64,000 nucleotides of DNA from Clostridia bacterium (GCA_017621695.1 JAGASP010000053.1:4787-68786); one strand, 5' to 3'. Shown: positions 40,230 to 54,329, counted from the first letter of the stretch. Numbers and translations are program-made. Notes: a model not told the origin generated them from the sequence alone.

Positions 40230-40309
40230 GACTGTTTATATACTGCCTTTTTAATTCTCAGGAAAGAGTTTAAATATCAAGTAATCCCCATCAAATCCTA
40301 TGGATGCCG

Positions 40310-41974
40310 TTACTCCGCGCCTTCTTCCCTTCTCTTTCGAGCACACCGCGCGGCGATCAGGCCGCACAGCAACAGCGGCAGCGCGACACTTGCCGTCACA
40401 GCGCCGCAGCCCTCGGAAGAGGTGGCTTCGGTTTGGGTTTCGGAGGCTTCTACAGAAGGAATCTCAGACTGTGCTTCGGTAGCCTCGGGTACGGGAGCGT
40501 CGGTAGCCTGCTCGGTAGGGGTCTCCGTGGGTTGCTCGGTCGGTGCTTCCGTGGGCTCCTCCGTGGGTTCTTCGGTCGGCTCTTCTGTGGGCTCTTCGGT
40601 ATCCACGGGAGGATCATCGTAGCGCAAACGGTAGAGCTTACCCTCGCCGGTGCGGAAGGTATCCTTCAGCATACCCTCTTCAAACATAACGGGGATATAC
40701 TCACCGATGAAGGGATCGAAATATTCCAGCCACTTTACGTCGCTCGAAATATCCACGGTAAACTTACACGTCGCGGATTTTCTTTTCGTGTTTTTATTGA
40801 AGATCATGATATACTGATCATCGCCCTCCTTAGGCTCCATCACGCTGATAACAAACTCGTTTCTGCCGCTGGGCTGGAGGAAGTAATCCTCGGGCAGGAG
40901 TTCTACCCCGTTTGTGCCCTTGTCGGTATGGTAAGCATGGGCGGCATCCAGATTCATGAGAAGAGAGGACAGGCCGCGAACCTCCCAGTTCAGCTCGCTG
41001 AAGGCTTCAAAAAGCTCAGGGTCGCGGATGGTACCGTCACGGTAAATGATGGAATCGCGGAAGCCCTCGCCCTCGGTATCCGAAGAGCCGGGGCAGACCA
41101 GATTGAACCAGGAAAGCGCCTTAAATCCATAGGCCAGGTAGCCATAGACGTTCCAACGCATCTCTCCCTCGGTGGGCATACGGGTACCGTTCCACGCGGT
41201 AGACTGGGGATATGCATGGGTCTTGAGCTTGCCGTTTTCATAGGCAACAGAACGGATCACCTCCATATCGGCGAAAATGTCGGTCAGAACCACGCCACCG
41301 TCACGGAAGGGATAGTAGTCGTGGGACAGATAATCGATATTTTCAGCGCCAATGGTCTCTACGAAATTGGTGACGTGCTCACGGTAAGTACCGCCCAGCG
41401 CCCACTCGGGAGCGTAGCTGGGGAACAGGTTGACCAGCGGATAACGGGTCGCGTCTGCCTCGCGGTAGAGCTTCACAAGCCGGGCGATCTCGGGGAACTT
41501 ATCGGCGGTAGGCTCGTCTACCAGGTGATAACCGATGCAGTGCTCCTTGCCTGCGGCATACTCTACGCCGATGGCGATATTCTTCTCTGCCATGCTGCCG
41601 TTCATCTGGTAGACCATATTGCGCTTGGCATACTGCTCCTCAATATTGTTCCAGTAATCGGCATCAAACATTGCCCCCGAGCCGAAATTCCGGGGGAACA
41701 TATTGAAGTTGATACCCGCCGCGGCCATCTGGTCGAGCTGGTATTCATAGCTGTCTTTTTCAAAGGAGTAGAAGGACACCCAAGAGCCGATGAGCAGATC
41801 GTCGGCGGTAACGTCGTCGGCCATGATCTTCTCGCGGTATGCGGCTTTCTTGGCTTCATATTCTGCATCGCTCTCGGTCTCGTCTGCCGAGACTGCAAAA
41901 ACAGACATGGTCAGAAGGCCGAAAATCAGGGTAAGCATGAGGGTCAGAGCTTTTGTCAGATACGAATGTTTCAT
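40310..41974 (-). CDS. Secreted TIM-barrel (clan GH-A-like) glycoside-hydrolase-like protein with PTEE-repeat linker and Cys-containing C-terminal anchor
   Basis: Signal MKHSYLTKALTLMLTLIFGLLTMSVFA (RBS GAAAGGAAG). Contains YHLVDEP and DYLSHDYYPF. The C-terminus has (EEPT)n followed by SSEGCGAVTASVALPLLLCGLIAARCARKRREEGAE. Confidence 0.7.
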   Translation of the reverse strand: MKHSYLTKALTLMLTLIFGLLTMSVFAVSADETESDAEYEAKKAAYREKIMADDVTADDLLIGSWVSFYSFEKDSYEYQLDQMAAAGINFNMFPRNFGSGAMFDADYWNNIEEQYAKRNMVYQMNGSMAEKNIAIGVEYAAGKEHCIGYHLVDEPTADKFPEIARLVKLYREADATRYPLVNLFPSYAPEWALGGTYREHVTNFVETIGAENIDYLSHDYYPFRDGGVVLTDIFADMEVIRSVAYENGKLKTHAYPQSTAWNGTRMPTEGEMRWNVYGYLAYGFKALSWFNLVCPGSSDTEGEGFRDSIIYRDGTIRDPELFEAFSELNWEVRGLSSLLMNLDAAHAYHTDKGTNGVELLPEDYFLQPSGRNEFVISVMEPKEGDDQYIMIFNKNTKRKSATCKFTVDISSDVKWLEYFDPFIGEYIPVMFEEGMLKDTFRTGEGKLYRLRYDDPPVDTEEPTEEPTEEPTEEPTEAPTEQPTETPTEQATDAPVPEATEAQSEIPSVEASETQTEATSSEGCGAVTASVALPLLLCGLIAARCARKRREEGAE

Positions 41975-42161
41975 AATGTTCTTCCTTTCGCTTGTGATTT
42001 TATATTTCATCCGAAACTTCATTTACTATTATATATGATTTTGTGCAGTTTGTCAACAGAAGCTCAGCAAAAAAACCCCGTTTCTTCCATCGGTTATATA
42101 TATTACATAAAATTTTCGAGAAAATACACAAATTATCGGCAGATAAAATCACAAATTTCCC

Positions 42162-42190
42162 TTGAAAAACAAATTGAAGTGTGATATAAT
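42162..42190 (+). promoter_or_regulatory. Promoter of the envelope gene cluster, followed by a leader hairpin at 42227-42246
   Basis: TTGAAA, 17 nt, TGaTATAAT. Leader hairpin TTGCCGAA-GCTT-TTCGGCAA. Confidence 0.5.
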
Positions 42191-42302
42191 ATAAAATGAT
42201 ATATTATGGCATACGAAAAATTTATTTTGCCGAAGCTTTTCGGCAATCACATATATCGCCATATAAGTGCACCCCACAGAATCAAAAGAACGGAGATATG
42301 CT

Positions 42303-44213
42303 ATGAGTAACACGCCAAAAACAGCCAAAATCAAACCGCCATATAAGGGCTATACCCTGAAAGAAAAATGGCTTCCCAGCCTTTTGCTTTCTCTGTTTGC
42401 CCCCTTGACCGTATGTTTTTTCGGCCCCTTTGAGATCTACGGAAACAACATGAGTGAATTCAAGTTCCTCCTTTGGGACTTCTGGCTTTTGTGCGGCGCG
42501 GTCGCTTTGGGTATCGCCGTCGTGATCTTCGGCCTTCTGATGCTTCTCCGCGGACGTGCGTACGACGTATGCTTCGGTCTCTTTTTCGGTCTTTCCCTCA
42601 TGCTTTTTGTCCAAGGCAATTATCTGAGCCTTGGCGCGGGCTCGCTGTCGGGCGACGGCGTGGGTGAGCTGCTCACCATCGGGAAAATCGTTTTCAATTC
42701 CATCATCTGGATCATTGTGATCGCCGCTTGCGTGGTCGCCATGCTGTTGCTGATGAGAAAATTCAAGGATCTGATCCGTCTCGTGGCAACGGTTGCGCTG
42801 ATCGCCTTGATCGGTATGACCGTGATCTCCTTTGTCGTCATTTCCATGACGACCGACGTATATACCTCTGACAAGGACGAGTCTCAGGCCACGCAGTCCG
42901 AGGAGCAGAGCGAAACGGCGACAGATCCTGCCGTTACTCCCGAGGATACACAGAAGGAAACCACGGCAGATCAGGAGACCCAGACTTCCGGAGACTCGGC
43001 GACCACAGATCCCACGCTTCCCGCCGAGGAAGTTCTGACCTTCAAGAATCTGGACACGCTGGCCACCCAGAACAACATCATTGTTTTCATCGTTGACCGT
43101 TTCGACCACAATTACTATGACAAGGCCATGGAGGAATGCCCCGAGGTCTTTGACTGTCTCGACGGCTTCACGCATTTTGACGACTATATCACCCTCTATC
43201 CCAGAACCTACCCCGGTGTTCCTCATATCCTGACGGGTGTGGAGATCCAGTTTACCGAGACCACGCGTCCCGACTATATGAAGTACGCCTACAGCCAGTC
43301 TCCCTACTGGCAGGCGCTGAAGGATGCGGGCTTTGACATCAACGTATACACGGACGATTATTACGGCTACGAAAATGCGGCTGATATGCGCAACTTCGTC
43401 TCCAACACCTCCGGCAACATCGACTACAAGATCGTCAACCGCCCCAGCCTCTCCATGGATATGATCCGCACCTCCCTGTACCGCTATCTTCCCTTCTCCA
43501 TGCGTCCCGTTCTGGGCGAGATCAATACCCCCATGTACGAAAAATACGTCGAGTATGATCTGCCCGAAAACAACAGCAAGTACTCTACCGATATGAAGGG
43601 CGTTTACGAGGAGATCACCAATGCCCCCTTTGCCTTCCGTGACTCCGAGCGCGGTGTCTCCTTTATCCACATTGCAGGCTGCCACATCCCCAACCGTTAC
43701 AACGAGAATTTTGAAAAGGTCTCCGCCGAAGAGAGAAACGACACCAACGTAGCCATCAAGCAAAGCTTTAAGATCATTTCCGCCTATATCGAAGAAATGA
43801 AGCGCATGGGCGTATATGAGAATTCCACCATTCTGATCATGGGTGACCATTGCAGCATCGGTTCTGACACCAAATTCCTCAAAAAGGCACACGTCACGAC
43901 CCTGCTTGCCAAGCCCGCCGGTGTATCCGAGGGTGAACTGAAGGAATCCAAGGCACAGGTCGGCCCCGAGGATATTTTTGCCACGGTACTGACCGCCGCC
44001 GGCTCTGACAAAGCCAAGGATTACGGCATGAATATTTTCGATATCCCCGAGGATCTTGATCGCGTGCGCCGCTACTATTTCCAGATCGTCGAAGGTACCT
44101 TTGAAGAAGGCAACTACCTGAACGTAGAGCTGGAGATCGTCGGCAACGGCAACGACGTTGAAAACTGGAAAGAGATCCGCGTCGTTGATATGCAAATGAA
44201 CATTTATGATTGA
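42303..44213 (+). CDS. Polytopic membrane protein with extracytoplasmic alkaline-phosphatase-superfamily (LtaS/sulfatase-like) transferase domain
   Basis: About 5 N-terminal hydrophobic segments, an acidic T/E/Q linker, then IIVFIVDRFDHNYY, YPRTYPGVPHILTG and ILIMGDHCS. Confidence 0.75.
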   Translation: MSNTPKTAKIKPPYKGYTLKEKWLPSLLLSLFAPLTVCFFGPFEIYGNNMSEFKFLLWDFWLLCGAVALGIAVVIFGLLMLLRGRAYDVCFGLFFGLSLMLFVQGNYLSLGAGSLSGDGVGELLTIGKIVFNSIIWIIVIAACVVAMLLLMRKFKDLIRLVATVALIALIGMTVISFVVISMTTDVYTSDKDESQATQSEEQSETATDPAVTPEDTQKETTADQETQTSGDSATTDPTLPAEEVLTFKNLDTLATQNNIIVFIVDRFDHNYYDKAMEECPEVFDCLDGFTHFDDYITLYPRTYPGVPHILTGVEIQFTETTRPDYMKYAYSQSPYWQALKDAGFDINVYTDDYYGYENAADMRNFVSNTSGNIDYKIVNRPSLSMDMIRTSLYRYLPFSMRPVLGEINTPMYEKYVEYDLPENNSKYSTDMKGVYEEITNAPFAFRDSERGVSFIHIAGCHIPNRYNENFEKVSAEERNDTNVAIKQSFKIISAYIEEMKRMGVYENSTILIMGDHCSIGSDTKFLKKAHVTTLLAKPAGVSEGELKESKAQVGPEDIFATVLTAAGSDKAKDYGMNIFDIPEDLDRVRRYYFQIVEGTFEEGNYLNVELEIVGNGNDVENWKEIRVVDMQMNIYD

Positions 44214-44241
44214 TGCGTAAAACTCACCAAAGGAGAATCAC

Positions 44242-46308
44242 ATGGACGCCATCCTACACTATATCTGTATCCCGCTGGGATATCTTATGAAATGGTGCTG
44301 GATGCTGGTCGGCAACTACGGCTGGGCCATCATCCTCTTCACCTTAGCTACCAAGCTGGTGCTGCTTCCTCTGTCTGTCTGGATCCACAAAAATTCCATT
44401 CAAATGATCAAGATCCAGCCCGACATCAACTTTTTGAAGGCCAACCACTACGGAGACGCCGATACCATTGCAGAGGAGCAGTCCAAGCTCTTCAAAAAGC
44501 ACAAATACCACCCCATGCTCTCCCTCGTACCGCTGGCGGCGCAGATCATCCTGCTCCTCGGCGTGGTGGAGATCATTTACCATCCGCTGGATCATCTGTT
44601 CGCCATAGATCCCGCGCAGATCTCCGAGTGGGCCAAGCTTTGCGGCATTGACACCGCCAATTCCTCTTACCAGCTGAGCCTGATCGAAGCCATCAAGGAA
44701 GGCGCGCTGGACGCGCTCGATGCCTCCGCCATTCCCGCGATCAAAGCGTTTGACGGCCATTTCCTGGGCTTCAATCTCTCCACCGTTCCCTCACAGGTCT
44801 GGGGGATCTACATCCTCATGCCCGTCATCGCGGGCCTGTCCTCCTGGATCATGTGCTTTACCCAGAACCTCTCCAACGTGCTCCAGCACGAGCAGAGCAA
44901 GCTGAACCAGCACGGTATGACCATCCTGTCGGTGGGTATTTCCCTGTATCTCGGTATCGGTGTGCCTGCAGGTATTGCATGGTACTGGGTCGCCAGCAAC
45001 ATTTTCTCCATCATCCAGATGTATATCCTCAACGCCGTCATCAGCCCCAAGAAGTACGTGGACTACGATGCTCTGGAGCGTAGCCGCAAGGCACTGGCCG
45101 ATATCGAGGCTCTGGAAGAGGGCAAGAAAAAGGATCCCATGTACCGTGAAAACCGCGCAAGAGAAAAGAAGGATTACAAGAAATTCTTCTCCGTGGTCAA
45201 CAAGCACCTCGTCATCTACTCCGAAAAGAGCGGCTTCTATAAGTATTTTGAAGCGTTGATCCAAGAGCTTTTGTCCCGTTCCAACATCGTCATCCATTAC
45301 GTCACCAATGACCCCAATGACGCCATCTTCAAGCTCGCCGAGACCGAGCCCCGCATCAAGCCCTATTACATCGGACTCAAAAAGATGATCCCCCTCATGA
45401 TGAAAGCAGAGGCAGATATCATCGTCATGACTACCCCCGATCTTGACAAGTACTATATCAAGCGCTCCATCATGAAAAAGGATATCGAGTACGTCTATAT
45501 TCCCCACGATATGATGAGCGTGCACATGGGCTTCCGTGAGGGTGCGCTGGATGCCTTTGACACCATCTTCTGCACAGGCCCTCACGTTGTCCGCGAGGTG
45601 CGTGCCACCGAGGAGGTCTACGGAGTTCCTCAAAAGAAGCTGGTAGAATTCGGCTATCCCTTGGCTGACAAGCTGATCGAGGCAGGAGAAGCAGAGCGCG
45701 CATCCCACGTCTCGGGTCCCCGCAAGGAGATTCTCATCGCCCCCTCGTGGCAGGAGGACAACCTCTTGGATTCCTGCATTGATGCCTTGATCGAAGCGCT
45801 TTACTGCGACGATTACCACCTGACCGTCCGTCCTCACCCCGAGTACGTCAAGCGTTACGGCGCACGGATGCAGGCCATCACCGAAAAGTATGCCCATCTC
45901 GTTGGTGACGGACTGACCTTTGAACTGGATTTCACGGTCAACAAGTCCGTATATTCCTCGGATCTTCTCATCACAGACTGGTCGGGTATTGCGCTGGAAT
46001 ACTGCTTCGCTACCCGTCGCCCCGCGCTCTTCGTCAACACCAAGCTCAAGTGCATGAACCCCAACTGGGAAAAGATCAACTGCATCCCCACCGAGATCTC
46101 TTTGCGAGACGTCGTGGGTGTGTCGGTAGATAAGGAGCAGCTCTCCGACAGCCGCAAGACGGTGGAGGATCTCTTCGCAAGAGCCGATGAATTTGAAGTC
46201 AAGATCGGCAAGGTGCTGGACGAGCACATCTTCAATCGGGGAACGGCTGCCGAGGTTGGTGCGAAATACCTTCTCGCGTCCTTGGTCGAAAAACGCAAAA
46301 AGTCTTGA
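44242..46308 (+). CDS. Fusion protein: N-terminal YidC/Oxa1-family insertase domain plus C-terminal TagB/TagF-type CDP-glycerol glycerophosphotransferase domain
   Basis: YidC-like: NYGWAIILFTLATKLVLLPLSVW, KIQPDINFLK, KLFKKHKYHPM, AWYWVASNIFSIIQ. TagF-like: ILIAPSWQED, RPHPEY, DLLITDWSGIALEY. One uninterrupted 688-codon frame. RBS AAAGGAG. Confidence 0.8.
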   Translation: MDAILHYICIPLGYLMKWCWMLVGNYGWAIILFTLATKLVLLPLSVWIHKNSIQMIKIQPDINFLKANHYGDADTIAEEQSKLFKKHKYHPMLSLVPLAAQIILLLGVVEIIYHPLDHLFAIDPAQISEWAKLCGIDTANSSYQLSLIEAIKEGALDALDASAIPAIKAFDGHFLGFNLSTVPSQVWGIYILMPVIAGLSSWIMCFTQNLSNVLQHEQSKLNQHGMTILSVGISLYLGIGVPAGIAWYWVASNIFSIIQMYILNAVISPKKYVDYDALERSRKALADIEALEEGKKKDPMYRENRAREKKDYKKFFSVVNKHLVIYSEKSGFYKYFEALIQELLSRSNIVIHYVTNDPNDAIFKLAETEPRIKPYYIGLKKMIPLMMKAEADIIVMTTPDLDKYYIKRSIMKKDIEYVYIPHDMMSVHMGFREGALDAFDTIFCTGPHVVREVRATEEVYGVPQKKLVEFGYPLADKLIEAGEAERASHVSGPRKEILIAPSWQEDNLLDSCIDALIEALYCDDYHLTVRPHPEYVKRYGARMQAITEKYAHLVGDGLTFELDFTVNKSVYSSDLLITDWSGIALEYCFATRRPALFVNTKLKCMNPNWEKINCIPTEISLRDVVGVSVDKEQLSDSRKTVEDLFARADEFEVKIGKVLDEHIFNRGTAAEVGAKYLLASLVEKRKKS

Positions 46309-46408
46309 CATTTCGTCTTGAGTGTGGTATAATGCTCTCATCGACTGTAAGATGCCTCGCGTCAGAGCTTGCGCATCCAACAGCATCCACACGATAAGGA
46401 GAATGAAT

Positions 46409-46627
46409 ATGCTGATGTTTCCCATCACCGCGGCCTACATTGACCCCGCAGCGACAACGGTCGTCATTACATCCATCAGCGGCATCATCATTGCCGTGAG
46501 TGCAACCGCCGTCATCCTGTGGAGAAAGGCAAAGAAAAAGGTGGCCACCGCGCTTCACATCGACGAAAACGCCAACAAGGAAGTCGAAGAAGAGCTGGTC
46601 ATCAACAACGACACCGACGCAGAATAA
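46409..46627 (+). CDS. Small single-pass membrane protein (72 aa) with an N-terminal AYIDPAATT motif
   Basis: RBS TAAGGAG lies 7 nt upstream. TM segment VVITSISGIIIAVSATAVILW is followed by RKAKKK and an acidic tail. Confidence 0.55.
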   Translation: MLMFPITAAYIDPAATTVVITSISGIIIAVSATAVILWRKAKKKVATALHIDENANKEVEEELVINNDTDAE

Positions 46628-46798
46628 GATCTGACCGTTGATCGGTTCAAAAATGCAAATTTTGCCCTCTGTCTTGAACGGAGGGCTGAATTTGCGATTT
46701 TTGCGTCTGTTTTTCAGAAATTTTGTTCAAAAAATCCCCTCGATACCCCCAAAAACGAACACCGCCAAAAAGTTTCAAAGTAAGAAAGGAAATGAATT

Positions 46799-47797
46799 AT
46801 GAAAAAAATGATGAAATCCGCTCTCGTGCTGACCCTCGCCCTGGTGATGGTTCTGAGCTGCCTTTCCTTCGTGGGTTGCTCCAAAAAACAGACCATCGTC
46901 ATCTACACCAGCGCAGAAGAATTCCGTATCGAATACATGAACCAGCGTTTCAAGGAGAAATTCCCCGAGTACGAAATCAGACTCGAATATATGTCCAGCG
47001 GTGACCAGTCTACCCTGCTGCAGTCTGCCGGCACCGACGCAGAATGCCAGATCACCCATGACCTGGAATACGGCACTGCCGCAAACCTTGAGTCCATCGG
47101 CGTTCTTGCAAACCTCAAGGATAGCGCAGACTTCTCCAAATATGTAAGCGATGCCGCTCCCAGCACCTACTACACCCCCGAGCTCCGCAACGGCGGTGCG
47201 ATCATCCTCAACATGGATGTCATCGAGGAAAAGGGTCTGGATATTCCCACCTCTTATGAAGATCTTCTGGATCCCCAGTACAAGGGTCTGATCTCCATGC
47301 CCGATCCCAAGAAGTCGGGTACCGGCTATATGTTCCTCCTCTCCCTTGTCAACGCCCGTGGCGAAGAGGAAGCATTCAACTACTTCACCGCGCTCTATGA
47401 AAATCTTGTGGGCTTTGAATCCTCCGGTTCGGGTCCTGTCAACAAGCTCATCACCAAGGAAGCCGCCATCGGCTTTGGTATGATCTCTCATGCCGTTCAG
47501 CAGATCAACGAGGGTCAGAACTTCAAGATCCTCTTCTTTGAGGAGGGCGCACCTTACTCTCTCTACGGACAGGCTGTGATCGCAGGCAACGAGGAGAACA
47601 AGGCAGTCATGGAAGTTTTCAATTTCCTCTCCAACGAGCTGACCGAGGAAATGTGCGAGCGCTTCTATCCTGAGAAGATCTATAAGGATAAGGACTTCAC
47701 CATCCAAAACTTCCCCACAGACATTCAGTACTCCGACATGAGTAACAACACGCCCGCAAGAAAGGCCGAGCTTTTGGAAAAATGGGTGCTGAGCTGA
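46799..47797 (+). CDS. ABC-importer substrate-binding lipoprotein (Fe3+/thiamine/2-aminoethylphosphonate-type SBP family)
   Basis: Lipobox SFVGC. 332 aa. QTIVIYTSAEE start typical of this SBP class. RBS GAAAGGAAA. Confidence 0.8.
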   Translation: MKKMMKSALVLTLALVMVLSCLSFVGCSKKQTIVIYTSAEEFRIEYMNQRFKEKFPEYEIRLEYMSSGDQSTLLQSAGTDAECQITHDLEYGTAANLESIGVLANLKDSADFSKYVSDAAPSTYYTPELRNGGAIILNMDVIEEKGLDIPTSYEDLLDPQYKGLISMPDPKKSGTGYMFLLSLVNARGEEEAFNYFTALYENLVGFESSGSGPVNKLITKEAAIGFGMISHAVQQINEGQNFKILFFEEGAPYSLYGQAVIAGNEENKAVMEVFNFLSNELTEEMCERFYPEKIYKDKDFTIQNFPTDIQYSDMSNNTPARKAELLEKWVLS

Positions 47798-48603
47798 TGG
47801 AAACCCATAACGTCAAACTCTCCCTGCAAAATATCACCCAGAAATACGAGAAAAATTCCCTGACTCCCGCGTTGGATCATGTCAGTGCCGATATCTACGA
47901 AGGAGAATTTCTCTCTATCCTCGGCCCCTCGGGCTGCGGTAAAACCACCCTGCTCCGTATCATCATCGGCCTGCTCTCCCCTACCGAAGGCAGCATTCTC
48001 CTTGACGGCAAGGACATCACCCATGCTCCTGCCTCCGCACGCTCCATGGGTATCGTTTTCCAGAATTACGCCTTGTTTGAAAACATGACCGTGCTGGGCA
48101 ACGTAGTCTACGCGGCATATCTCAAGGCAAAGAAAGAAAAGAGCGCCACAAAGGCAGAGATCACGGATTCTGCCCTCGCCATGCTGGAGCTTCTGGGCAT
48201 CGCCGAGCACAAGGACAAATACCCCTCCGAGCTGTCGGGCGGTCAGCAACAGCGCGTAGCCATCGCAAGAACCCTCATCCACAATCCCTCGATCATGCTC
48301 TTTGATGAGCCGATGTCGGCACTTGACGTAGCAACGCGACTCCAGCTCCGCGACGTCATCAAGGATATCCAGCAGAAATTCGGCACCACGATGATCTATA
48401 TTACCCATGACCAGGAGGAGGCCTTTGCGCTGTCCGACCGCATCATGGTCATGGATAAGGCCAGAATCGTGCAGATCGACACCCCCGAAGAGATCATCAG
48501 CCATCCCGCCGATGCATACGTCGAGGAATTTGTAGTGGGAAATCTTCATAAGAAGATCGCTTCCCTTTCCAAGTACGCCTCCGCGGGCGGCGCGCAGGCA
48601 TAA
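47797..48603 (+). CDS. ABC transporter ATP-binding protein (alternative start at 47782)
   Basis: Walker A GPSGCGKTT, signature LSGGQQQRVAIAR, Walker B IMLFDEP. The start overlaps the SBP stop (TGATG). Confidence 0.9.
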   Translation: METHNVKLSLQNITQKYEKNSLTPALDHVSADIYEGEFLSILGPSGCGKTTLLRIIIGLLSPTEGSILLDGKDITHAPASARSMGIVFQNYALFENMTVLGNVVYAAYLKAKKEKSATKAEITDSALAMLELLGIAEHKDKYPSELSGGQQQRVAIARTLIHNPSIMLFDEPMSALDVATRLQLRDVIKDIQQKFGTTMIYITHDQEEAFALSDRIMVMDKARIVQIDTPEEIISHPADAYVEEFVVGNLHKKIASLSKYASAGGAQA

Positions 48604-50270
48604 TGACCGAAAGGAATGATCGACTTATGATAAAAAAGAATCGGACAGCTACCTTCAGCACCCCTATTAAACTGGCTGTCACGCTGATCCTTCTGCTTTT
48701 GGTGATTATCCCCATCATCCGAATGTTCTCGGGTGTCAAAGCCTCGGATTTCCGGGACGTATTTTCCCACGTCCTCTTCCCTGAGGCGGTCAAAAATTCC
48801 GTGGTTCTTTCCCTGATTGCCACCTTGATCAGCGTGTTGCTGGCCTATATTCTGGCACTCTGCATCGTGCGGACCAACATCCCCGGGAAAAAGGTTTTCG
48901 GTATTCTCCTGACCCTTCCCATGCTCATCCCCTCTATTTCTCACGGCATTGGTCTGACCACCCTGTTCGGCAACAACGGCCTTGTGACCCAGCTTTTCAA
49001 AACCCCCGCCATTTACGGTCCGGTCGGTATCGTCACAGGATCCGTCATGTACGCCTTTCCCGTCGCTTATATCATGCTGGCGGACGTATTGAAATACGAG
49101 GATCTTTCGGTATACGAAGCGGCTGACATCTTAGGCATCAGCAAGCCAAGACAGTTCTTCCGTCTGTCCCTCCCCTATATGAGCAAGCCCCTGCTTGCTA
49201 CGGTTTTCAGCACGTTTTCCATGATCGTGACGGACTACGGTGTTCCGCTTTCCATCGGCGGCAAAACAGTCACTCTCTCCACACGTATGTACACCGAAAT
49301 TGCTGCAGCTACGGGCGGTGACTTTGGAGAAAGCATCGTATACGCCCTTTGCTTGCTGATTCCCGCGATCATCGCTTTCGCGGCCGACGCCATCAACAAG
49401 GAAAAGGGCACCCTGTCTTATGTCAAAGCATCCTCTCACACCAAAACAGCGCCTGCCGTCAGGGTCGTTGCCTTTGTCATGTGCTGTCTCGTTTCCTTCA
49501 TGGCGCTTTTGCCCATTTTGTCCTTTGCCGTGCAGGCATTCGTGGTATCCTATCCCAAGGATATGACCTTCACCTTCAGCCAGGTACAGCATACCATCGA
49601 AAAGCGCGGACTTGAATTTTTGAAAAACTCCCTCGTCATTGCGCTGATCACGGCAACTTTGGGCATAGTGCTCTCCTATATCACAGCATACCTGACAGCA
49701 AGAATGCGCTCCCCTCTCTCCCGCCTCATGCACCTGCTGGTGCTGACCTTCATGGCGGTTCCGGGTCTTGTACTGGGCTTGTCCTATGCCATGACCTTCA
49801 GAGGAACGTTGATCTACGGCACCATCGTGATCATGACCATGGCCAACACAGCCCATTTCATGGCTTCCCCCTACCTCATGATGTACAATTCCTTCGGGAA
49901 AATGAATGAAAATCTTGAGTCCGTGGGACAGACTCTGGGTGTCAGCCGCATCCGTATGCTGAAGGATGTATTTATTCCCCAAAACATCTCCACCCTGGCG
50001 GAAATGTTCTCTTACCTGTTCGTCAACAGCATGATGACCATTTCAGCGGTATCCTTCCTGTTCTCTTCCAAGACCCGTCCCATTTCCCTTTTGATCTCCC
50101 AGTTCAACAGCGGTGTGGGCGGTATAGAGCTGGCGGCCGTGGTATCTCTGATGATCTTGCTCGTCAATCTCCTCATGAAGGGTCTCATAGGCCTGATCAA
50201 AATTTTGGCAGAAGCCAAAAAGAAGCGTGGAAAGGAAACCGTACATGACACTCTCGAAAAAGCAATTTGA
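48603..50270 (+). CDS. Fused two-domain ABC permease (FbpB/ThiP-like, 555 aa)
   Basis: Two tandem multi-TM halves. The start overlaps the ATPase stop (TAATG). Confidence 0.85.
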   Translation: MTERNDRLMIKKNRTATFSTPIKLAVTLILLLLVIIPIIRMFSGVKASDFRDVFSHVLFPEAVKNSVVLSLIATLISVLLAYILALCIVRTNIPGKKVFGILLTLPMLIPSISHGIGLTTLFGNNGLVTQLFKTPAIYGPVGIVTGSVMYAFPVAYIMLADVLKYEDLSVYEAADILGISKPRQFFRLSLPYMSKPLLATVFSTFSMIVTDYGVPLSIGGKTVTLSTRMYTEIAAATGGDFGESIVYALCLLIPAIIAFAADAINKEKGTLSYVKASSHTKTAPAVRVVAFVMCCLVSFMALLPILSFAVQAFVVSYPKDMTFTFSQVQHTIEKRGLEFLKNSLVIALITATLGIVLSYITAYLTARMRSPLSRLMHLLVLTFMAVPGLVLGLSYAMTFRGTLIYGTIVIMTMANTAHFMASPYLMMYNSFGKMNENLESVGQTLGVSRIRMLKDVFIPQNISTLAEMFSYLFVNSMMTISAVSFLFSSKTRPISLLISQFNSGVGGIELAAVVSLMILLVNLLMKGLIGLIKILAEAKKKRGKETVHDTLEKAI

Positions 50271-51138
50271 CATTTTAGTATATCTGGAAGGAAAAAAAGT
50301 TGCCGCATCTCAGCGTGAGATCGCCGCTGAGACAGGCTTTTCCCTCGGAACTGTCAACAAGATCCTGACAGAATTTTCTGAAAACGGCCTGATCTCGGGC
50401 GGTGCTATCACCGAGGCAGGCATTAAAGCGCTGGAGCCCTATCGCGTCAAGCGCGCCGTATTCATGGCCGCAGGCTTTGGCTCCCGACTCGTGCCCATTA
50501 CCCTGAACACCCCCAAGCCCTTGGTGCGTGTCAAGGGCAAGCGCATCATTGATTCCCTGCTGGATGCCGTCGTGGCGGCCGGCATTGAAGAGATCTACCT
50601 CGTGCGCGGCTATCTGGCCGAGCAGTTCGATCAGCTGCTTTTGAAGTATCCGGCCATCAAATTTATTGAAAACCCGGTATACAACGAGACCAACAACATC
50701 TCTTCGGCCTACTGCGCGCGGAAGTTCATCTCCAACAGCTACGTCTTTGAATCCGACCTTTTGCTGTATAACCCCAAGGTCATCACCAAATACCAGTATT
50801 CCAGCAACTATCTGGGCGTTCCCACCGAGATCACCGAGGACTGGTGCTTTACCACCAACGCTGCGGGCTATATCAACAGCCTGGCGCTGGGCGGCACCCA
50901 CTGCTACCATATGTTCGGCATCTCCTATTTCACCGCCGAAGACGGTGCAAAGCTCTGCGAGGATCTTGAGAAGGTATATAGTCTCCCCGGCGGCAAGCAG
51001 CGCTTCTGGGATCAGGTCGCCTTTGACTATTTCCCCAACCATTACAAGATCTCGGTGCGTCCCTGCGAATTTTCGGATGTCATTGAGATCGACACCTTCA
51101 ACGAGCTGAAGCAGTTGGATCCCAACTATGCGATGTGA
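50245..51138 (+). CDS. Winged-helix HTH domain fused to a LicC-type nucleotidyltransferase (CTP:phosphocholine/phosphonate cytidylyltransferase-like)
   Basis: Residues from ~75 align with S. pneumoniae LicC (AAGFGSRLVPITLNTPKPLV, ETNNISSAY, NSYVFESDLLL, FGISYF, RFWDQVA, VIEIDTFNEL). The N-terminal ~70 aa is MarR-like (QREIAAETGFSLGTVNKIL). Overlaps the permease 3' end by 26 nt. Confidence 0.8.
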   Translation: MTLSKKQFDILVYLEGKKVAASQREIAAETGFSLGTVNKILTEFSENGLISGGAITEAGIKALEPYRVKRAVFMAAGFGSRLVPITLNTPKPLVRVKGKRIIDSLLDAVVAAGIEEIYLVRGYLAEQFDQLLLKYPAIKFIENPVYNETNNISSAYCARKFISNSYVFESDLLLYNPKVITKYQYSSNYLGVPTEITEDWCFTTNAAGYINSLALGGTHCYHMFGISYFTAEDGAKLCEDLEKVYSLPGGKQRFWDQVAFDYFPNHYKISVRPCEFSDVIEIDTFNELKQLDPNYAM

Positions 51139-51291
51139 GCTTCGGGTCACCGTAATATCATGAATACCTAATAGCGCACGTGCGACTCCATGTACACGTG
51201 CGCTTTTTCTCTTGACATTTCCTTTAAATATGGTATAATAAATAATTGCGGACATCCGCACGTACATCCCATCGTCGAGGTGTTTTATTTC

Positions 51292-52671
51292 ATGCAAATC
51301 AAAAAATTCATAGGCGACAAGGCCTTTTACAAGATGGTGCTGGCCCTGACCATCCCCATCATCATACAAAACGGTATCACCAATTTCGTCAATCTTCTGG
51401 ACAACGTGATGGTAGGACAGCTCTCCCCCGAGGAATTCGCGGGCACGGGCATTGCCAACCAGCTCATGTTCGTGTGCAATCTGGCCATTTTCGGCGGGCT
51501 CTCGGGCTCGGGTATCTTCACAGCGCAATTCTTTGGCAAAAACGATCATGAAGGTATCCGCCATACCATGCGCTTCAAGCTCTACACCGTGCTGATCCTG
51601 TTGACCGTATGCGGAGCCGTGCTGATCCCCTTCGGGAAACCCCTGATCTCGGCGTTTTTGACCGATGACGGACAAACGGGTGACGTCGCCCTTGCCCTGC
51701 ATTACGGCTACAACTATCTGTTGATCGCCCTCGTCTCTCTGATCCCCGCGTCCTTGGCGCAGGTCTACGCCTCCACACTCCGTGAGACGGGACACACGGT
51801 GCCTCCCATGCTCGCCAGCGTGGCGGCAGTGCTGGCCAACGCGGTGTTCAACTACATCCTCATTTTCGGTAAGCTCGGCCTCCCTGCCCTGGGCGTGAAC
51901 GGCGCGGCCTTGGGTACAGTCATCGCCCGTGTCATCGAGCTGGCGATCGTCATGATCTGGGCTCATGCCAACGCCATCAAACTCCCCTATATCAAGGGTG
52001 TTTACCGCTCCTTTAAAATTCCTGCGGAATTGAGCCGCCGTATCCTTGTCAAATGTCTGCCCCTTTTGGGGAACGAATTCTTGTGGTCGTCGGGCATGGC
52101 GATCCTCAACCAATGCTATTCCACCCGCGGCATGGCAGCAGTCAACGCCATCAACATGAGCACAACGGTTACAAACCTTTTCAACATCGTCTTTATTTCT
52201 CTCGGCACGTCCCTGGCTATCCTTGTAGGCAACCAACTGGGTGCGGGAAAGATCGAGGAGGCCAAGGATACCGACCGAAAGATCATCGCCTTTTCTATGG
52301 TCATCTGCACCGCCGTAGCAGCACTGATGGTCGCCTGCTCTCCCCTGTTTACCATGATGTACAACGCCACCGACGAGATCAAAGCGCTGGCGGCCTCCCT
52401 CATTGCGGTATGCGCCTGCATGATGCCCTTCGATTCCTTTGCACATAACTGCTATTTCACCCTGCGCTCGGGAGGCCAGACCTTTATCACCTTCCTTTTT
52501 GACTCAGCCTTCGTGTGGGCCGTCAGCATCCCCGCGGCCTTCCTTCTGTCGAGGCTGACAAGCCTGTCCCTGATCCCCCTCTTCATCATCTGCACCGTTT
52601 TGAATCTTCTTAAGTGCGTCATCGGGGCCTTGATGCTGAAATCGGGCAAGTGGGCAAGGAAGCTGGTGTGA
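51292..52671 (+). CDS. MATE-family (MOP superfamily) transporter
   Basis: IPIIIQNGITNFVNLLDNVMVGQL and about 12 hydrophobic segments. Confidence 0.85.
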   Translation: MQIKKFIGDKAFYKMVLALTIPIIIQNGITNFVNLLDNVMVGQLSPEEFAGTGIANQLMFVCNLAIFGGLSGSGIFTAQFFGKNDHEGIRHTMRFKLYTVLILLTVCGAVLIPFGKPLISAFLTDDGQTGDVALALHYGYNYLLIALVSLIPASLAQVYASTLRETGHTVPPMLASVAAVLANAVFNYILIFGKLGLPALGVNGAALGTVIARVIELAIVMIWAHANAIKLPYIKGVYRSFKIPAELSRRILVKCLPLLGNEFLWSSGMAILNQCYSTRGMAAVNAINMSTTVTNLFNIVFISLGTSLAILVGNQLGAGKIEEAKDTDRKIIAFSMVICTAVAALMVACSPLFTMMYNATDEIKALAASLIAVCACMMPFDSFAHNCYFTLRSGGQTFITFLFDSAFVWAVSIPAAFLLSRLTSLSLIPLFIICTVLNLLKCVIGALMLKSGKWARKLV

Positions 52672-52771
52672 GGCGTGTGGAGGAAACGCAAGGGGAAACC
52701 GAACTGCAAGCAGTTCATGAAAAAAGTTTTCCCTTGACCCTTTCAAGAACCTTTCATAAGACAAACCCCGG

Positions 52772-52809
52772 CGGACACCTGCTCTATAGGCAGGTGTCCG
52801 TTTCGTCTT
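52772..52809. terminator. Bidirectional terminator
   Basis: CGGACACCTGC-TCTATAG-GCAGGTGTCCG followed by TTTCGTCTT. Confidence 0.7.
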
Positions 52810-52845
52810 ATTCATGCTACTTATTTCTCAATGGTCGTGAACCGT

Positions 52846-53073
52846 TTACTTGATTTCCTCGCGCTTTGACTTCTCCAAGCCCTTGATCTTTTCCCGCAAG
52901 GAATCCATCTCGCGGTTCAGCTCGGCGGTCTTCTTCCGAAGCTCCGTGATCCTGCTCTCCGCGTCCGCGATCACTTCCTCATGCGCCGCGTCGTTCAGCT
53001 CGGTCACCGTCTTGTCCTTGAACTGTAGCATCTTACGAAGCAGCTCTGCCTTGCGGGTCATCAAGCCTTCCAT
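52846..53073 (-). CDS. Small coiled-coil protein (75 aa), hypothetical
   Basis: Heptad-rich K/E sequence and coding-like composition. Weak RBS. Confidence 0.4.
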   Translation of the reverse strand: MEGLMTRKAELLRKMLQFKDKTVTELNDAAHEEVIADAESRITELRKKTAELNREMDSLREKIKGLEKSKREEIK

Positions 53074-53110
53074 GTCGGCCCTATCTTCCGAAAAATCTTC
53101 ACCAAATCCC

Positions 53111-53139
53111 TTGTAAATTTCATCATCCTATGCTATACT
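53111..53139 (+). promoter_or_regulatory. Promoter, copy 1 of the duplicated cassette
   Basis: TTGTAA, 17 nt, TGcTATACT. The context CCCTTGTAAAT...ATGCTATACT is identical to 55303-55331. Confidence 0.6.
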
Positions 53140-53170
53140 AAACAATAACGGCATTTTATGTTTTTAGCCA

Positions 53171-53205
53171 TATCTTGTATCTTGTATCTCGTATCTTATA
53201 TCTCA
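53171..53205 (+). repeat. Five tandem heptamers TATCTYR in the 5' leader
   Basis: TATCTTG TATCTTG TATCTCG TATCTTA TATCTCA, read directly. Confidence 0.9.
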
Positions 53206-53231
53206 ATAATTCGCACCGAAAGGACACCGCC

Positions 53232-54329
53232 ATGACCATAAATAAAGCCCCCGAAACCATGACCTCCAAGGAACGCGTCCGCCGCACCTTCGCTTTTGAA
53301 AAAACCGACCGTGTCACCATCGGCTACGAGGCCAACGCCGCCATTCACCAAAAGCTCTGCCACGCGCTGGGCATCCGCCCCGACGACTACGAGGGACTGT
53401 ACCGTGCTTTGGGCGTGGACTACCGTAGCATCGGCGCACCCTATGTGGGCAAGCCCCTGCACGCCGTTCCCGAGAACCGCATGGTGGATCAGCTGGAGGG
53501 CTGCATCATGCGTTGGGTAGCGCATGAAACGGGCGGCTACTGGGATTTCTGTGACTTCCCCTTAAAAGATGCCGCCGACGAGCTGTTTGACAGCTTCCCC
53601 GTCCCTGATCCAGACGATTTTGACTACGATGCCGCCCTGGCCGCCGCCAAGAGCTACGGCGGGGAGTACGGTCTTTATATCGGCAACCCCGGTGTGCCCG
53701 ACATCATCAACTCCAACGGCCGCATCATGGGCATGGAGGACGTTCTGTGCCATCTCATGATGGACGATGATGCCGCCATGAATTTTATTCGCCGCCGCGC
53801 GAATTTTCAACTCCGCATGATGGAGCGGCTTCTGGACAAATGCCACGAGCATCTGGATTTCATGTGGCTGGGCGAGGATCTGGGCACCCAGATCGCCCCT
53901 ATGGTCAGCCTGCCCCTGTATCGGGAGCAGATCAAGCCCATCCACAAGCAGTTCGTGGATCTGGCCGCGTCCTATGATCTCCCCGTGATCATCCATTCCT
54001 GCGGCAGCAGCAGTTGGTTCTTTGAGGATTTCATCGAGATGGGCATCCGCGGCGTGGACACCCTCCAGCCCGAGGCGGTCAACATGAGTCCCGCTTATCT
54101 GGCGGAGCATTTCGGCGGACGGCTGAATTTCCGCGGCTGTATCTCCACCGCAGGCCCGCTGGCCTACGGCACAGCGCAGGAGACCGAGAATATTTGCCGC
54201 GAGACCCTCGGCATCATGATGCAGGCGGGCGGCTACCACTTCGCCCCCACCCACGCCATTCAGGACAACAGCCCCGTGGAGAACGTGATTGCCATGTACC
54301 AAGCGGCGCATACTTGGGGAAAATATTGA
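53232..54329 (+). CDS. Uroporphyrinogen-decarboxylase (URO-D)/MtaA-like family protein
   Basis: SKERVRRTFAFEKTDRV at the N-terminus and GGYHFAPTHAIQDNSPVENV near the C-terminus. RBS AAAGGA. Confidence 0.7.
   Translation: MTINKAPETMTSKERVRRTFAFEKTDRVTIGYEANAAIHQKLCHALGIRPDDYEGLYRALGVDYRSIGAPYVGKPLHAVPENRMVDQLEGCIMRWVAHETGGYWDFCDFPLKDAADELFDSFPVPDPDDFDYDAALAAAKSYGGEYGLYIGNPGVPDIINSNGRIMGMEDVLCHLMMDDDAAMNFIRRRANFQLRMMERLLDKCHEHLDFMWLGEDLGTQIAPMVSLPLYREQIKPIHKQFVDLAASYDLPVIIHSCGSSSWFFEDFIEMGIRGVDTLQPEAVNMSPAYLAEHFGGRLNFRGCISTAGPLAYGTAQETENICRETLGIMMQAGGYHFAPTHAIQDNSPVENVIAMYQAAHTWGKY

Follow-up and report, generated by a model that had tools for sequence, protein, structure and literature searches.

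Decoration of Gram-positive envelopes with phosphocholine or 2-aminoethylphosphonate (AEP) affects recognition by the host, the adsorption of phages and the targeting of autolysins and is, to our knowledge, known so far only through the LicD and Pnt routes. Here, we describe a gene cluster at positions 42,303 to 52,671 of a 64,000-nucleotide stretch of DNA (GCA_017621695.1 JAGASP010000053.1:4787-68786; hereafter the window, to which coordinates refer unless a locus is named) from a Clostridia bacterium of the ruminant gut. The cluster begins with a three-gene membrane module encoding an LtaS-like ecto-enzyme, a fusion of a YidC-like insertase to a TagF-like transferase (YidC-TagF) and a small single-pass protein, and continues with an import and activation module (46799-51138) made up of an ATP-binding cassette (ABC) importer and a LicC/PntC-type cytidylyltransferase. 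We put at about even chances the proposal that the latter module imports and activates a head group, and that the former places the head group of the resulting CMP/CDP conjugate on the cell envelope. The source assembly is 90.6% complete, and absences reported genome-wide are provisional.

TagF-type enzymes draw on TagD or TarIJ for their donor, CDP-glycerol or CDP-ribitol, and TagF itself has two catalytic or pyrophosphate-binding histidines, H444 and H584. LtaS, GacH, EptA and BcsG, for their part, use phospholipid head groups. The hydrophilic groove of YidC carries an arginine, R366 in E. coli and R72 in B. halodurans. YidC-family insertases have further been reported to scramble lipids (10.1101/2023.09.01.555937). 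As to the activating enzymes, Rice et al. (2019) found that the size of the pocket sets the preference for phosphocholine or AEP: positions 105 and 192 of Spn-LicC are both Asp, small enough to leave space for the trimethylammonium group, with Trp136 in the aromatic box, and in Tde-PntC both are Glu (E104 and E196) (PMC6697681). Among the relevant transporters, AfuA binds sugar (hexose) phosphates and P5PA binds pyridoxal phosphate (PMC4546632, PMC8427247); AepP, a GlpT-like transporter of the major facilitator superfamily (MFS; OPA family), and solute-binding proteins (SBPs) of the PF13343 type are proven AEP transporters (PMC8316502). AEP itself has been reported in rumen bacteria as well as in protozoa (PMC4659874).

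Results

A three-gene membrane module is conserved in gut Clostridia

The conserved unit of the cluster is the set of three genes at 42303-46627 which encode the ecto-enzyme, the YidC-TagF fusion and the small protein. A scan of one genome per species retrieved relatives of the fusion from Clostridia of herbivore and human guts, at least 590 species-level genomes in all, and gene neighborhoods were compared in the best 80 of these species. The 80 genomes, metagenome-assembled for the most part with a few isolates, came from yak, sheep, deer, cattle, horse, rabbit and human gut and were labelled Oscillospiraceae, Acutalibacteraceae, Christensenellaceae or Ruminococcus. A sulfatase-family gene stood beside the fusion in 72 species and the small-protein gene in 73, most exceptions being contig ends. 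In a sample of 301 genomes from the same order, the full fusion was present in about 13, representing at least eight families. Downstream of loci consisting of the membrane module only, the genes were unrelated to one another.

Three cluster representatives (P0129, P0132 and P0150) carry sulfatase, YidC and TagF domains, in this order, on a single chain, and a fourth (P0137) has them as YidC-TagF-sulfatase. Both orders would fit the topology predicted from the sequences, which places the start of the YidC core outside, and both the TagF domain and the Lys-rich N-terminal tail of the ecto-enzyme in the cytoplasm.

The fusion joins a YidC core to a TagF-like transferase domain

The fusion protein comprises a YidC/Oxa1 core (residues ~1-270), a K/E-rich linker and a TagF-like GT-B phosphotransferase domain (residues ~296-688). 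The core matched PF02096 with 105 bits (cut-off 35) and TIGR03592 with 100.6 bits (cut-off 84.3), as expected of the five transmembrane (TM) segments of YidC, and aligned to the E. coli and B. halodurans structures. In place of the groove arginine it has Lys38, a residue kept in at least 90% of the fusion homologs, leaving a positive charge at this position. A second, housekeeping YidC is encoded elsewhere in the same genome in a yidD-yidC-jag context (contig C3, L001:535-2700); its 721-codon frame extends some 320 residues ahead of the YidC core and has an apparent Glu at the expected position of the groove Arg, both the alignment and the start codon being provisional.

The C-terminal domain scored 51.9 bits against PF04464 (Glyphos_transf; cut-off 22.1). 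Its structural model (pLDDT 96.7) found its best PDB match in TagF (3L7K, E 1e-13), followed by Cps3D and TarL, and H422, R530 and H532 were invariant in 66 homologs of the domain. The genome yielded no match to TIGR01518, the family of the TagD enzyme that would supply CDP-glycerol, and the donor of this domain is probably another compound.

With the TagF, TarL and Cps3D polymerases as its closest folds, and with a polymerase-like domain fused to a groove-forming membrane domain in a genome devoid of canonical LtaS, the membrane module might be thought of as a synthase-type polymerase. The TagF-like domain would then build a poly(phospho-alcohol), with a lipid or the small protein as its base; export would be through the YidC groove, and the ecto-enzyme would ligate or trim the chain, yielding a polymer resembling lipoteichoic acid without LtaS chemistry. 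Neither an amino-alkyl phosphonate nor phosphocholine, however, offers a second hydroxyl for chain growth, and such a polymerase would therefore need another donor in a genome that lacks TagD; no YidC groove is known to let long anionic polymers through. We regard this polymerase scheme as improbable.

The ecto-enzyme has the residues of a Thr-nucleophile phosphotransferase

In the product of the first gene, a linker that is acidic and rich in Thr connects an N-terminal block of several TM segments to an extracytoplasmic catalytic domain; the protein accounts for the sole PF00884 match in the genome (37.9 bits, over the cut-off). An AlphaFold2 (AF2) model of the ectodomain (pLDDT 93) showed an alkaline-phosphatase fold; sulfatases, PbgA/YejM and LtaS/LtaP were tied among its fold matches at Z 19-22, and the searches could not separate an LtaS-like from a PbgA-like enzyme or a true sulfatase. 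Across 54 homologs, D277, T314, H468, H473 and D527-H528 were invariant (P0001 numbering, from the GTG at 42267). Judging the roles of these residues from their position, the pattern is that of a Thr-nucleophile phosphotransferase and not of a formylglycine sulfatase. The protein is thus predicted to share with LtaS and EptA a TM anchor, an outward alkaline-phosphatase fold, a Thr nucleophile and an Asp/His metal site. At the sequence level, it belonged to no NCBIfam family, and the match to LtaS in the PDB was limited to 32 residues (E 0.058).

At one related locus (L051:925-4011; 70% LicC identity), two tandem sulfatase-family paralogs of 407 and 614 aa precede the fusion gene, the 407-aa copy being devoid of the long TM block.

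The small protein and the role of the YidC domain

From its N- to its C-terminus, the small protein consists of a short tail, an invariant Y-I/V-D-P motif (hence YIDP protein), a TM helix, the sequence WRKAKKK and a conserved acidic tail (IDENAxKEVE). In distant orthologs, a cleavable signal peptide ends just before the YIDP motif. The protein could be a carrier, a client of YidC or a scaffold; a predicted complex with YidC-TagF scored 0.28 against a mark of 0.32 and was not used for or against anything. One cluster representative (P0139) has an S26 signal peptidase fused to the N-terminus of YidC-TagF, which fits the cleavable signal peptide of many small-protein orthologs.

These features may be read to mean that the YidC domain has no part in head-group transport and serves as an insertase or anchor for the YIDP protein and the ecto-enzyme, while the TagF-like domain and the ecto-enzyme act on separate substrates. 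The hallmarks of YidC are indeed kept (a TIGR03592 score over the cut-off and the positively charged Lys38), the small protein resembles YidC clients in its short N-tail or cleaved signal peptide, and the P0139 fusion also points in this direction. Such an explanation, however, accounts neither for the fusion of an insertase to a cytoplasmic transferase in hundreds of species nor for the occurrence of all three activities in one polypeptide, and we consider it doubtful. At the other extreme, the YidC-like domain may be a dedicated translocator of head-group carriers, an insertase fold working as a flippase, with the TagF-like domain loading a lipid or the processed YIDP protein inside and the ecto-enzyme unloading it outside, the whole being fed in this lineage by salvaged AEP of ciliate or host origin; in this specific form, we deem the idea unlikely.

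The importer and the cytidylyltransferase form a recurrent unit, probably for salvage

By a wide margin, the best NCBIfam families of the importer were those of the putative AEP importer PhnS2/T2/U2, yet none of the equivalog cut-offs was reached: the SBP scored 154.6 bits against PhnS2 (TIGR03261; cut-off 392.75), the ATPase 307.2 against PhnT2 (TIGR03265; cut-off 457.7) and the permease 339.1 against PhnU2 (TIGR03262; cut-off 593.25), the next family of the permease coming at 98 bits. The SBP, whose lipobox is LSFVGC, has AfuA and P5PA as its nearest solved relatives and retains their phosphate-binding motifs (T37/S38, S172-G173-T174 and the SSG turn), which, together with the AEP transport known for AepP and PF13343-type SBPs, points to a substrate bearing phosphate or phosphonate.

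The unit formed by SBP, ATPase, permease and LicC recurs in many genomes and in both gene orders, in some of them far from the membrane module or without it; an ABC importer was found within 10 kb of the fusion in 18 of the 80 species. Where LicC stands beside the membrane module, it is paired with one of three unrelated importers, namely the ABC system (~17 loci), an APC-family permease directly 3' of LicC (five loci: L087, L102, L103, L117 and L143) or, also directly 3' of LicC, an MFS organophosphate:phosphate antiporter with PgtP/GlpT as best match (three loci: L138, L128 and L140). No kinase adjoined LicC in these module-linked loci, whichever the importer type. The pairing of a single enzyme with three unrelated importers, where no kinase is adjacent, suggests that LicC receives its substrate ready-made from outside. 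The first-pass annotation had proposed salvage in preference to synthesis, and this proposal gains support from the occurrence of the importer-LicC unit in both orders, the importer swaps, the lack of an adjacent kinase and the phosphate-binding motifs of the SBP.

That the best-scoring families are putative AEP importers would also suit a nutrient scavenger which takes up AEP or another organophosphate as a source of phosphorus or nitrogen, with LicC as a side activity. Against this, no PhnW-type transaminase was found in the assembly, the importer gene overlaps that of the cytidylyltransferase, and importers of three families all come paired with LicC; we hold scavenging to be very improbable.

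A primary-amine substrate is slightly favored

The best solved relative of the LicC-like protein was LicC from S. pneumoniae (1JYK; E 5e-26), which aligned over its full length to query residues 70-298; PntC (Tde-PntC, 6PD1) aligned over the N-terminal part only. The G-x-G-x-R loop characteristic of the fold is present as AAGFGSRL, PF00483 scored over its cut-off, and a winged helix-turn-helix (wHTH) domain (HTH_24/MarR_2) occupies residues 10-56. At the positions that distinguish the two enzymes, the protein has Glu for D105 of LicC, Asp as in LicC at D192, and the conserved Trp136. It thus departs from the two Asp of LicC and, among the marks of PntC (Glu at both positions and a link to Ppm, Ppd and AEP transaminase), displays the first Glu only. 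Glu fills the D105 position in each of the 30 close LicC orthologs that adjoin the membrane module, and in 30 of 31 orthologs when one more is counted; five of the close orthologs have Glu at D192 too.

AEP or phosphoethanolamine is slightly favored over phosphocholine as the substrate. The PhnS2-like, APC and GlpT-like importers, the herbivore-gut habitat and the reported occurrence of AEP in rumen bacteria (PMC4659874) lean towards a primary-amine head group; phosphocholine is kept in play by the rank of LicC as closest solved enzyme and by orthologs that adjoin LicD in Wzx/Wzy clusters elsewhere. We give AEP or phosphoethanolamine a little better than an even chance, and see phosphocholine as a distinctly weaker candidate and any other compound as a slightly weaker one still.

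In three other loci (L059, L061 and L062, from genomes G238, G146 and G053), tandem LicC paralogs, one copy of which has DWCY instead of YWDQ as its pocket motif, mark the end of a polysaccharide cluster of the Wzx/Wzy type, which encodes two LicD proteins, a Stealth phosphotransferase and a cytoplasmic Zn-phospholipase-C-like protein; these loci may activate two different head groups. The Zn-phospholipase-C-like gene beside LicC in G053 was considered as a clue and dropped, its product having no signal peptide and no homolog in the genome under study.

Genome content and the link between the two modules

The initial remark that the window holds no LicA, LicD, TagD or phosphonate-biosynthesis gene extends to the whole assembly, in which we found no LicD, choline kinase (LicA), TagD or PhnW, and no PEP mutase over the cut-off. 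The only TagF-like and the only sulfatase-family genes of the genome lie in this cluster. With these two as single copies and TagD missing, the LicC product is the only evident CDP/CMP-alcohol donor.

In 31 of the 80 species, the fusion had a LicC ortholog no more than 10 kb away, in at least five arrangements. LicC may follow the permease or precede the SBP, the whole import and activation module may lie 5' of the membrane module, and in L128 a LicC-MFS pair stands directly 5' of the sulfatase-family gene. In the order-level sample, a LicC-like gene occurred in 6 of 13 fusion genomes compared to 17 of 288 others, a difference that is indicative only, as relatives are not independent. The LicC-positive genomes devoid of LicD (the present one, G000, together with G075, G013, G127 and G191) all have a TagF-like gene, LicD and TagF-like genes being complementary among LicC-positive genomes; in G127, a stand-alone TagF-like gene adjoins LicC. 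The proximity of LicC to the fusion, the genomes with a TagF-like gene and no LicD, and the absence of TagD lend indirect support to the earlier suggestion that the activated head group is handed over to the TagF-like and LtaS-like enzymes. The glycerophosphate-type polymer named in that suggestion as the acceptor gains no such support and is hypothetical.

The two modules might instead be mere neighbors, the membrane module using another donor (CDP-glycerol or CDP-ribitol) and the LicC product feeding a different transferase, for instance in phospho- or phosphonolipid synthesis. Consistent with such independence, the membrane module is found without LicC in 49 of the 80 species, some genomes with the module have TagD (G013 and G236), LicC modules adjoin LicD in polysaccharide clusters elsewhere, and the modules are set apart by a hairpin and by a distinct regulatory region. 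In the present genome, however, neither TagD nor LicD is available and there is a single TagF-like gene; in addition, the adjacency survives several rearrangements and three importer types, and LicC is enriched in fusion-bearing genomes. We therefore rate mere proximity as unlikely.

Transcription signals, operator-like palindromes and neighboring genes

ORF calling returned the eight co-oriented plus-strand genes at the coordinates first assigned to them, Pfam and NCBIfam profile searches bore out the family of each, and the 26-nt overlap between the permease and LicC genes follows from their coordinates (Table 1). The promoter that had been placed upstream of the cluster is present as a promoter-like site, P1. 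The eight genes had been described as tightly spaced behind this one promoter; this part of the annotation is not upheld, as two more promoters (P2 and P3) and two hairpins are predicted to split 42303-52671. On the evidence of these signals, which are consensus and folding predictions rather than mapped RNA ends, the eight genes are not a single operon.

Table 1. Predicted genes and regulatory features of the cluster, in window coordinates.
Feature	Position	Strand	Basis or remark
P1, TTGAAA-17-TATAAT, TG-extended -10, promoter-like, 5' of the membrane module	42162-42190	+	11/12 consensus match only
LtaS-like membrane enzyme	42303-44213	+	PF00884
YidC-TagF fusion, 688 aa	44242-46308	+	PF02096, TIGR03592, PF04464
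P2, perfect sigma-70 consensus TTGACA-17-TATAAT, TG-extended	46305-46333	+	overlaps fusion-gene stop codon, precedes small gene
Small single-pass membrane protein, 72 aa	46409-46627	+	without Pfam family
O1, GTTCA-N25-TGAAC	46645-46679		sole exact match in 64-kb window; 0.09 expected by chance
Long hairpin followed by U-rich tract, 3' of small gene	46648-46703	+	dG -37.7 kcal/mol, z -6.3
O2, GTTCA-N26-CGAAC, one mismatch	46725-46760		starts 80 nt after O1, ends 38 nt before SBP start
Lipoprotein SBP of ABC importer	46799-47797	+	PF13343
ABC ATPase without C-terminal regulatory domain	47782-48603	+	PF00005
Fused double permease	48603-50270	+	PF00528 twice
wHTH-LicC/PntC-type cytidylyltransferase	50245-51138	+	1JYK similarity, HTH_24/MarR_2
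Hairpin and U-run 3' of LicC, terminator-like	51173-51204	+	dG -22.3 kcal/mol, z -2.75
P3, second perfect consensus promoter, 5' of MATE gene	51212-51239	+	consensus match
MATE efflux gene, likely start ATG 51293	to 52671	+	TIGR00797

The hairpin at 46648-46703 is likely, from its predicted fold, to be a terminator or attenuator ending the transcription unit of the membrane module. Hairpins occupy the matching spot 3' of the small gene in L051 and L039, and classical terminators do so in loci with the membrane module only. An Rfam search of 41900-53300 (E up to 1) returned no family, and the intergenic hairpins match no described riboswitch. Contigs from bovine gut RNA libraries, in which DNA carry-over is possible and which show neither transcript ends nor relative levels, cover pieces of most genes; among those compared, none runs across the interval that separates the small gene from the SBP gene. 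One such contig covers 46353-46656 only and had the top contig depth in three bovine gut runs. With P2 just upstream, the small gene may be separately and strongly expressed as a short transcript.

Of 29 loci in which LicC adjoins the membrane module, 23 have the inverted repeat represented by O1 and O2 located 5' of the leading gene of the LicC/transporter unit, whatever the type of importer; in many relatives, the repeat occurs as two copies 80-81 nt apart. It also precedes units without the membrane module (L052, L053, L054, L057, L060, L061 and L064; sites at L052:3558, L053:9339, L057:13672, L060:11567, L061:7248, and L064:9933 and 10013). The 80 loci (1.27 Mb) contained 52 matches in all, mostly at these unit-upstream sites. 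As the wHTH of LicC is the sole DNA-binding domain common to all palindrome-bearing units, it is the candidate regulator, and the wHTH-LicC protein is probably an autoregulator acting through O1/O2.

The last gene encodes a member of the MATE family (TIGR00797, 178.3 bits; cut-off 147.4), to which a role as exporter or flippase had been ascribed. This role finds no support, as the gene has its own promoter-like site (P3), is preceded by the terminator-like hairpin and lacks synteny: no MATE ortholog was found beside the fusion in any of the 80 species, nor in L039 or L051. On account of this absence, the gene was excluded from the system, to which it is an unrelated neighbor. At the other end, a co-oriented ORF of 626 aa (40304-42184) was left out, as it has no Pfam or NCBIfam family and is not found beside the module in 80 other species. 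Finally, a short GC hairpin (GCCGAAGC/GCTTCGGC core) lies at 42227-42246, in the leader between P1 and the first gene; it is terminator-like on the minus strand only, where no gene ends.

Discussion

In the scheme that we propose, the import and activation module would take up an amine-bearing organophosphate or organophosphonate from the gut, a step which comparative evidence supports, and the wHTH-LicC/PntC-type enzyme would join this compound directly to CMP without any kinase step, a chemistry that is established for the family. The cytoplasmic TagF-like domain would then transfer the phospho(no) head group to a carrier held in the membrane, presumably a lipid such as a glycolipid or diacylglycerol, though the small YIDP protein may also serve. 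The fused YidC-like domain may bring the loaded carrier to the outer face, or insert the small protein, and the outward-facing enzyme of the alkaline-phosphatase superfamily would pass the head group to an acceptor in the envelope, mirroring LtaS, GacH, EptA and BcsG.

Several observations weigh against this scheme. The hairpin and the separate promoter-like sites set the two modules apart. Several sampled genomes with the membrane module (G031, G162 and G094) showed neither LicC nor TagD and, together with the LicC-free loci, they imply that the membrane module is not tied to this donor. Of the two LicC residues that discriminate between substrates, one is Glu and one Asp, a mixed pattern. 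Choline-binding repeats (PF19127), taken as a proxy for walls with phosphocholine and present in only one of about 15 genomes with a close LicC, are absent from this genome and from G075, G278 and G013, an absence that does not settle the substrate. The acceptor of the TagF-like domain and the group transferred by the ecto-enzyme are sequence-based predictions, and the YidC part could act as no more than an anchor, or as an insertase of the usual kind.

If the proposed scheme is correct, the cluster points to a third route of envelope decoration, widespread in gut and rumen Clostridia as judged from the species with fusion relatives, in which a salvaged, pre-phosphorylated head group would be used by an enzyme resembling its own transcription factor and by a YidC-fused membrane machine. 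The natural fusion makes lipid movement by the YidC family directly testable. The cluster may, in addition, explain the old reports of AEP in rumen bacteria and not in protozoa alone (PMC4659874). Literature searches retrieved no description of a YidC-glycerophosphotransferase (YidC-TagF) fusion or of a salvage route combining LicC with an importer, which is no proof that none exists.

Comparison with known systems

LtaS, GacH, OpgB, EptA/MCR-1, BcsG and PbgA have in common with the ecto-enzyme a TM block followed by an outward catalytic domain, and the position of the Thr nucleophile and the Asp/His metal ligands; unlike LtaS- and EptA-type enzymes, however, the ecto-enzyme is always partnered with a YidC-TagF fusion. 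The YidC core of the latter, which resembles YidC, SpoIIIJ and Oxa1 closely enough to exceed the TIGR03592 cut-off, differs from them in being a second copy outside the yidD-yidC-jag context, in its Lys for the groove Arg and in the C-terminal enzyme domain found where the ribosome-binding tail would be. This enzyme domain shares with TagF, TarF, TarL and the TagF-like capsule polymerases the GT-B fold, TagF being its best structural match, and its own conserved His/Arg/His residues may correspond to the TagF histidines. It sets itself apart from the TagF family by an identity of only 14-16% and the lack of an NCBIfam family, by the YidC domain that stands in place of TagF's own N-terminal domain, and by the absence of TagD, TagGH or other tag genes near the fusion.

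On the import side, the SBP class (PF13343) and its phosphate-binding motifs are shared with PhnSTUV, AepXVW, AepSTU, AfuA and P5PA, and the replacement of the ABC system by a GlpT-like MFS in some species recalls AepP. In contrast to AEP importers, the transporter is coupled here to activation rather than catabolism, and its scores stay under the PhnS2/T2/U2 cut-offs.

The lic pathway of S. pneumoniae and Haemophilus (LicB permease, LicA kinase, LicC and LicD transferase) likewise relies on a LicC-type enzyme and on an exogenous head group to decorate the envelope. The present system differs from it in having no LicA, LicB or LicD, the presumed transferase being TagF-like; in the import of a compound that would be phosphorylated already or a phosphonate; and in the Glu for Asp105 and the added wHTH domain of its LicC. 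The Pnt pathway, in which PntC makes CMP-AEP (PMC6697681), is comparable in its LicC-like enzyme, whose Glu narrows the pocket to suit a primary amine, and in the cell-surface destination. The second discriminating residue is here an Asp, Tde-PntC aligns N-terminally only, and Ppm, Ppd and AEP transaminase are all missing here, so that the head group would be salvaged where the Pnt pathway relies on biosynthesis.

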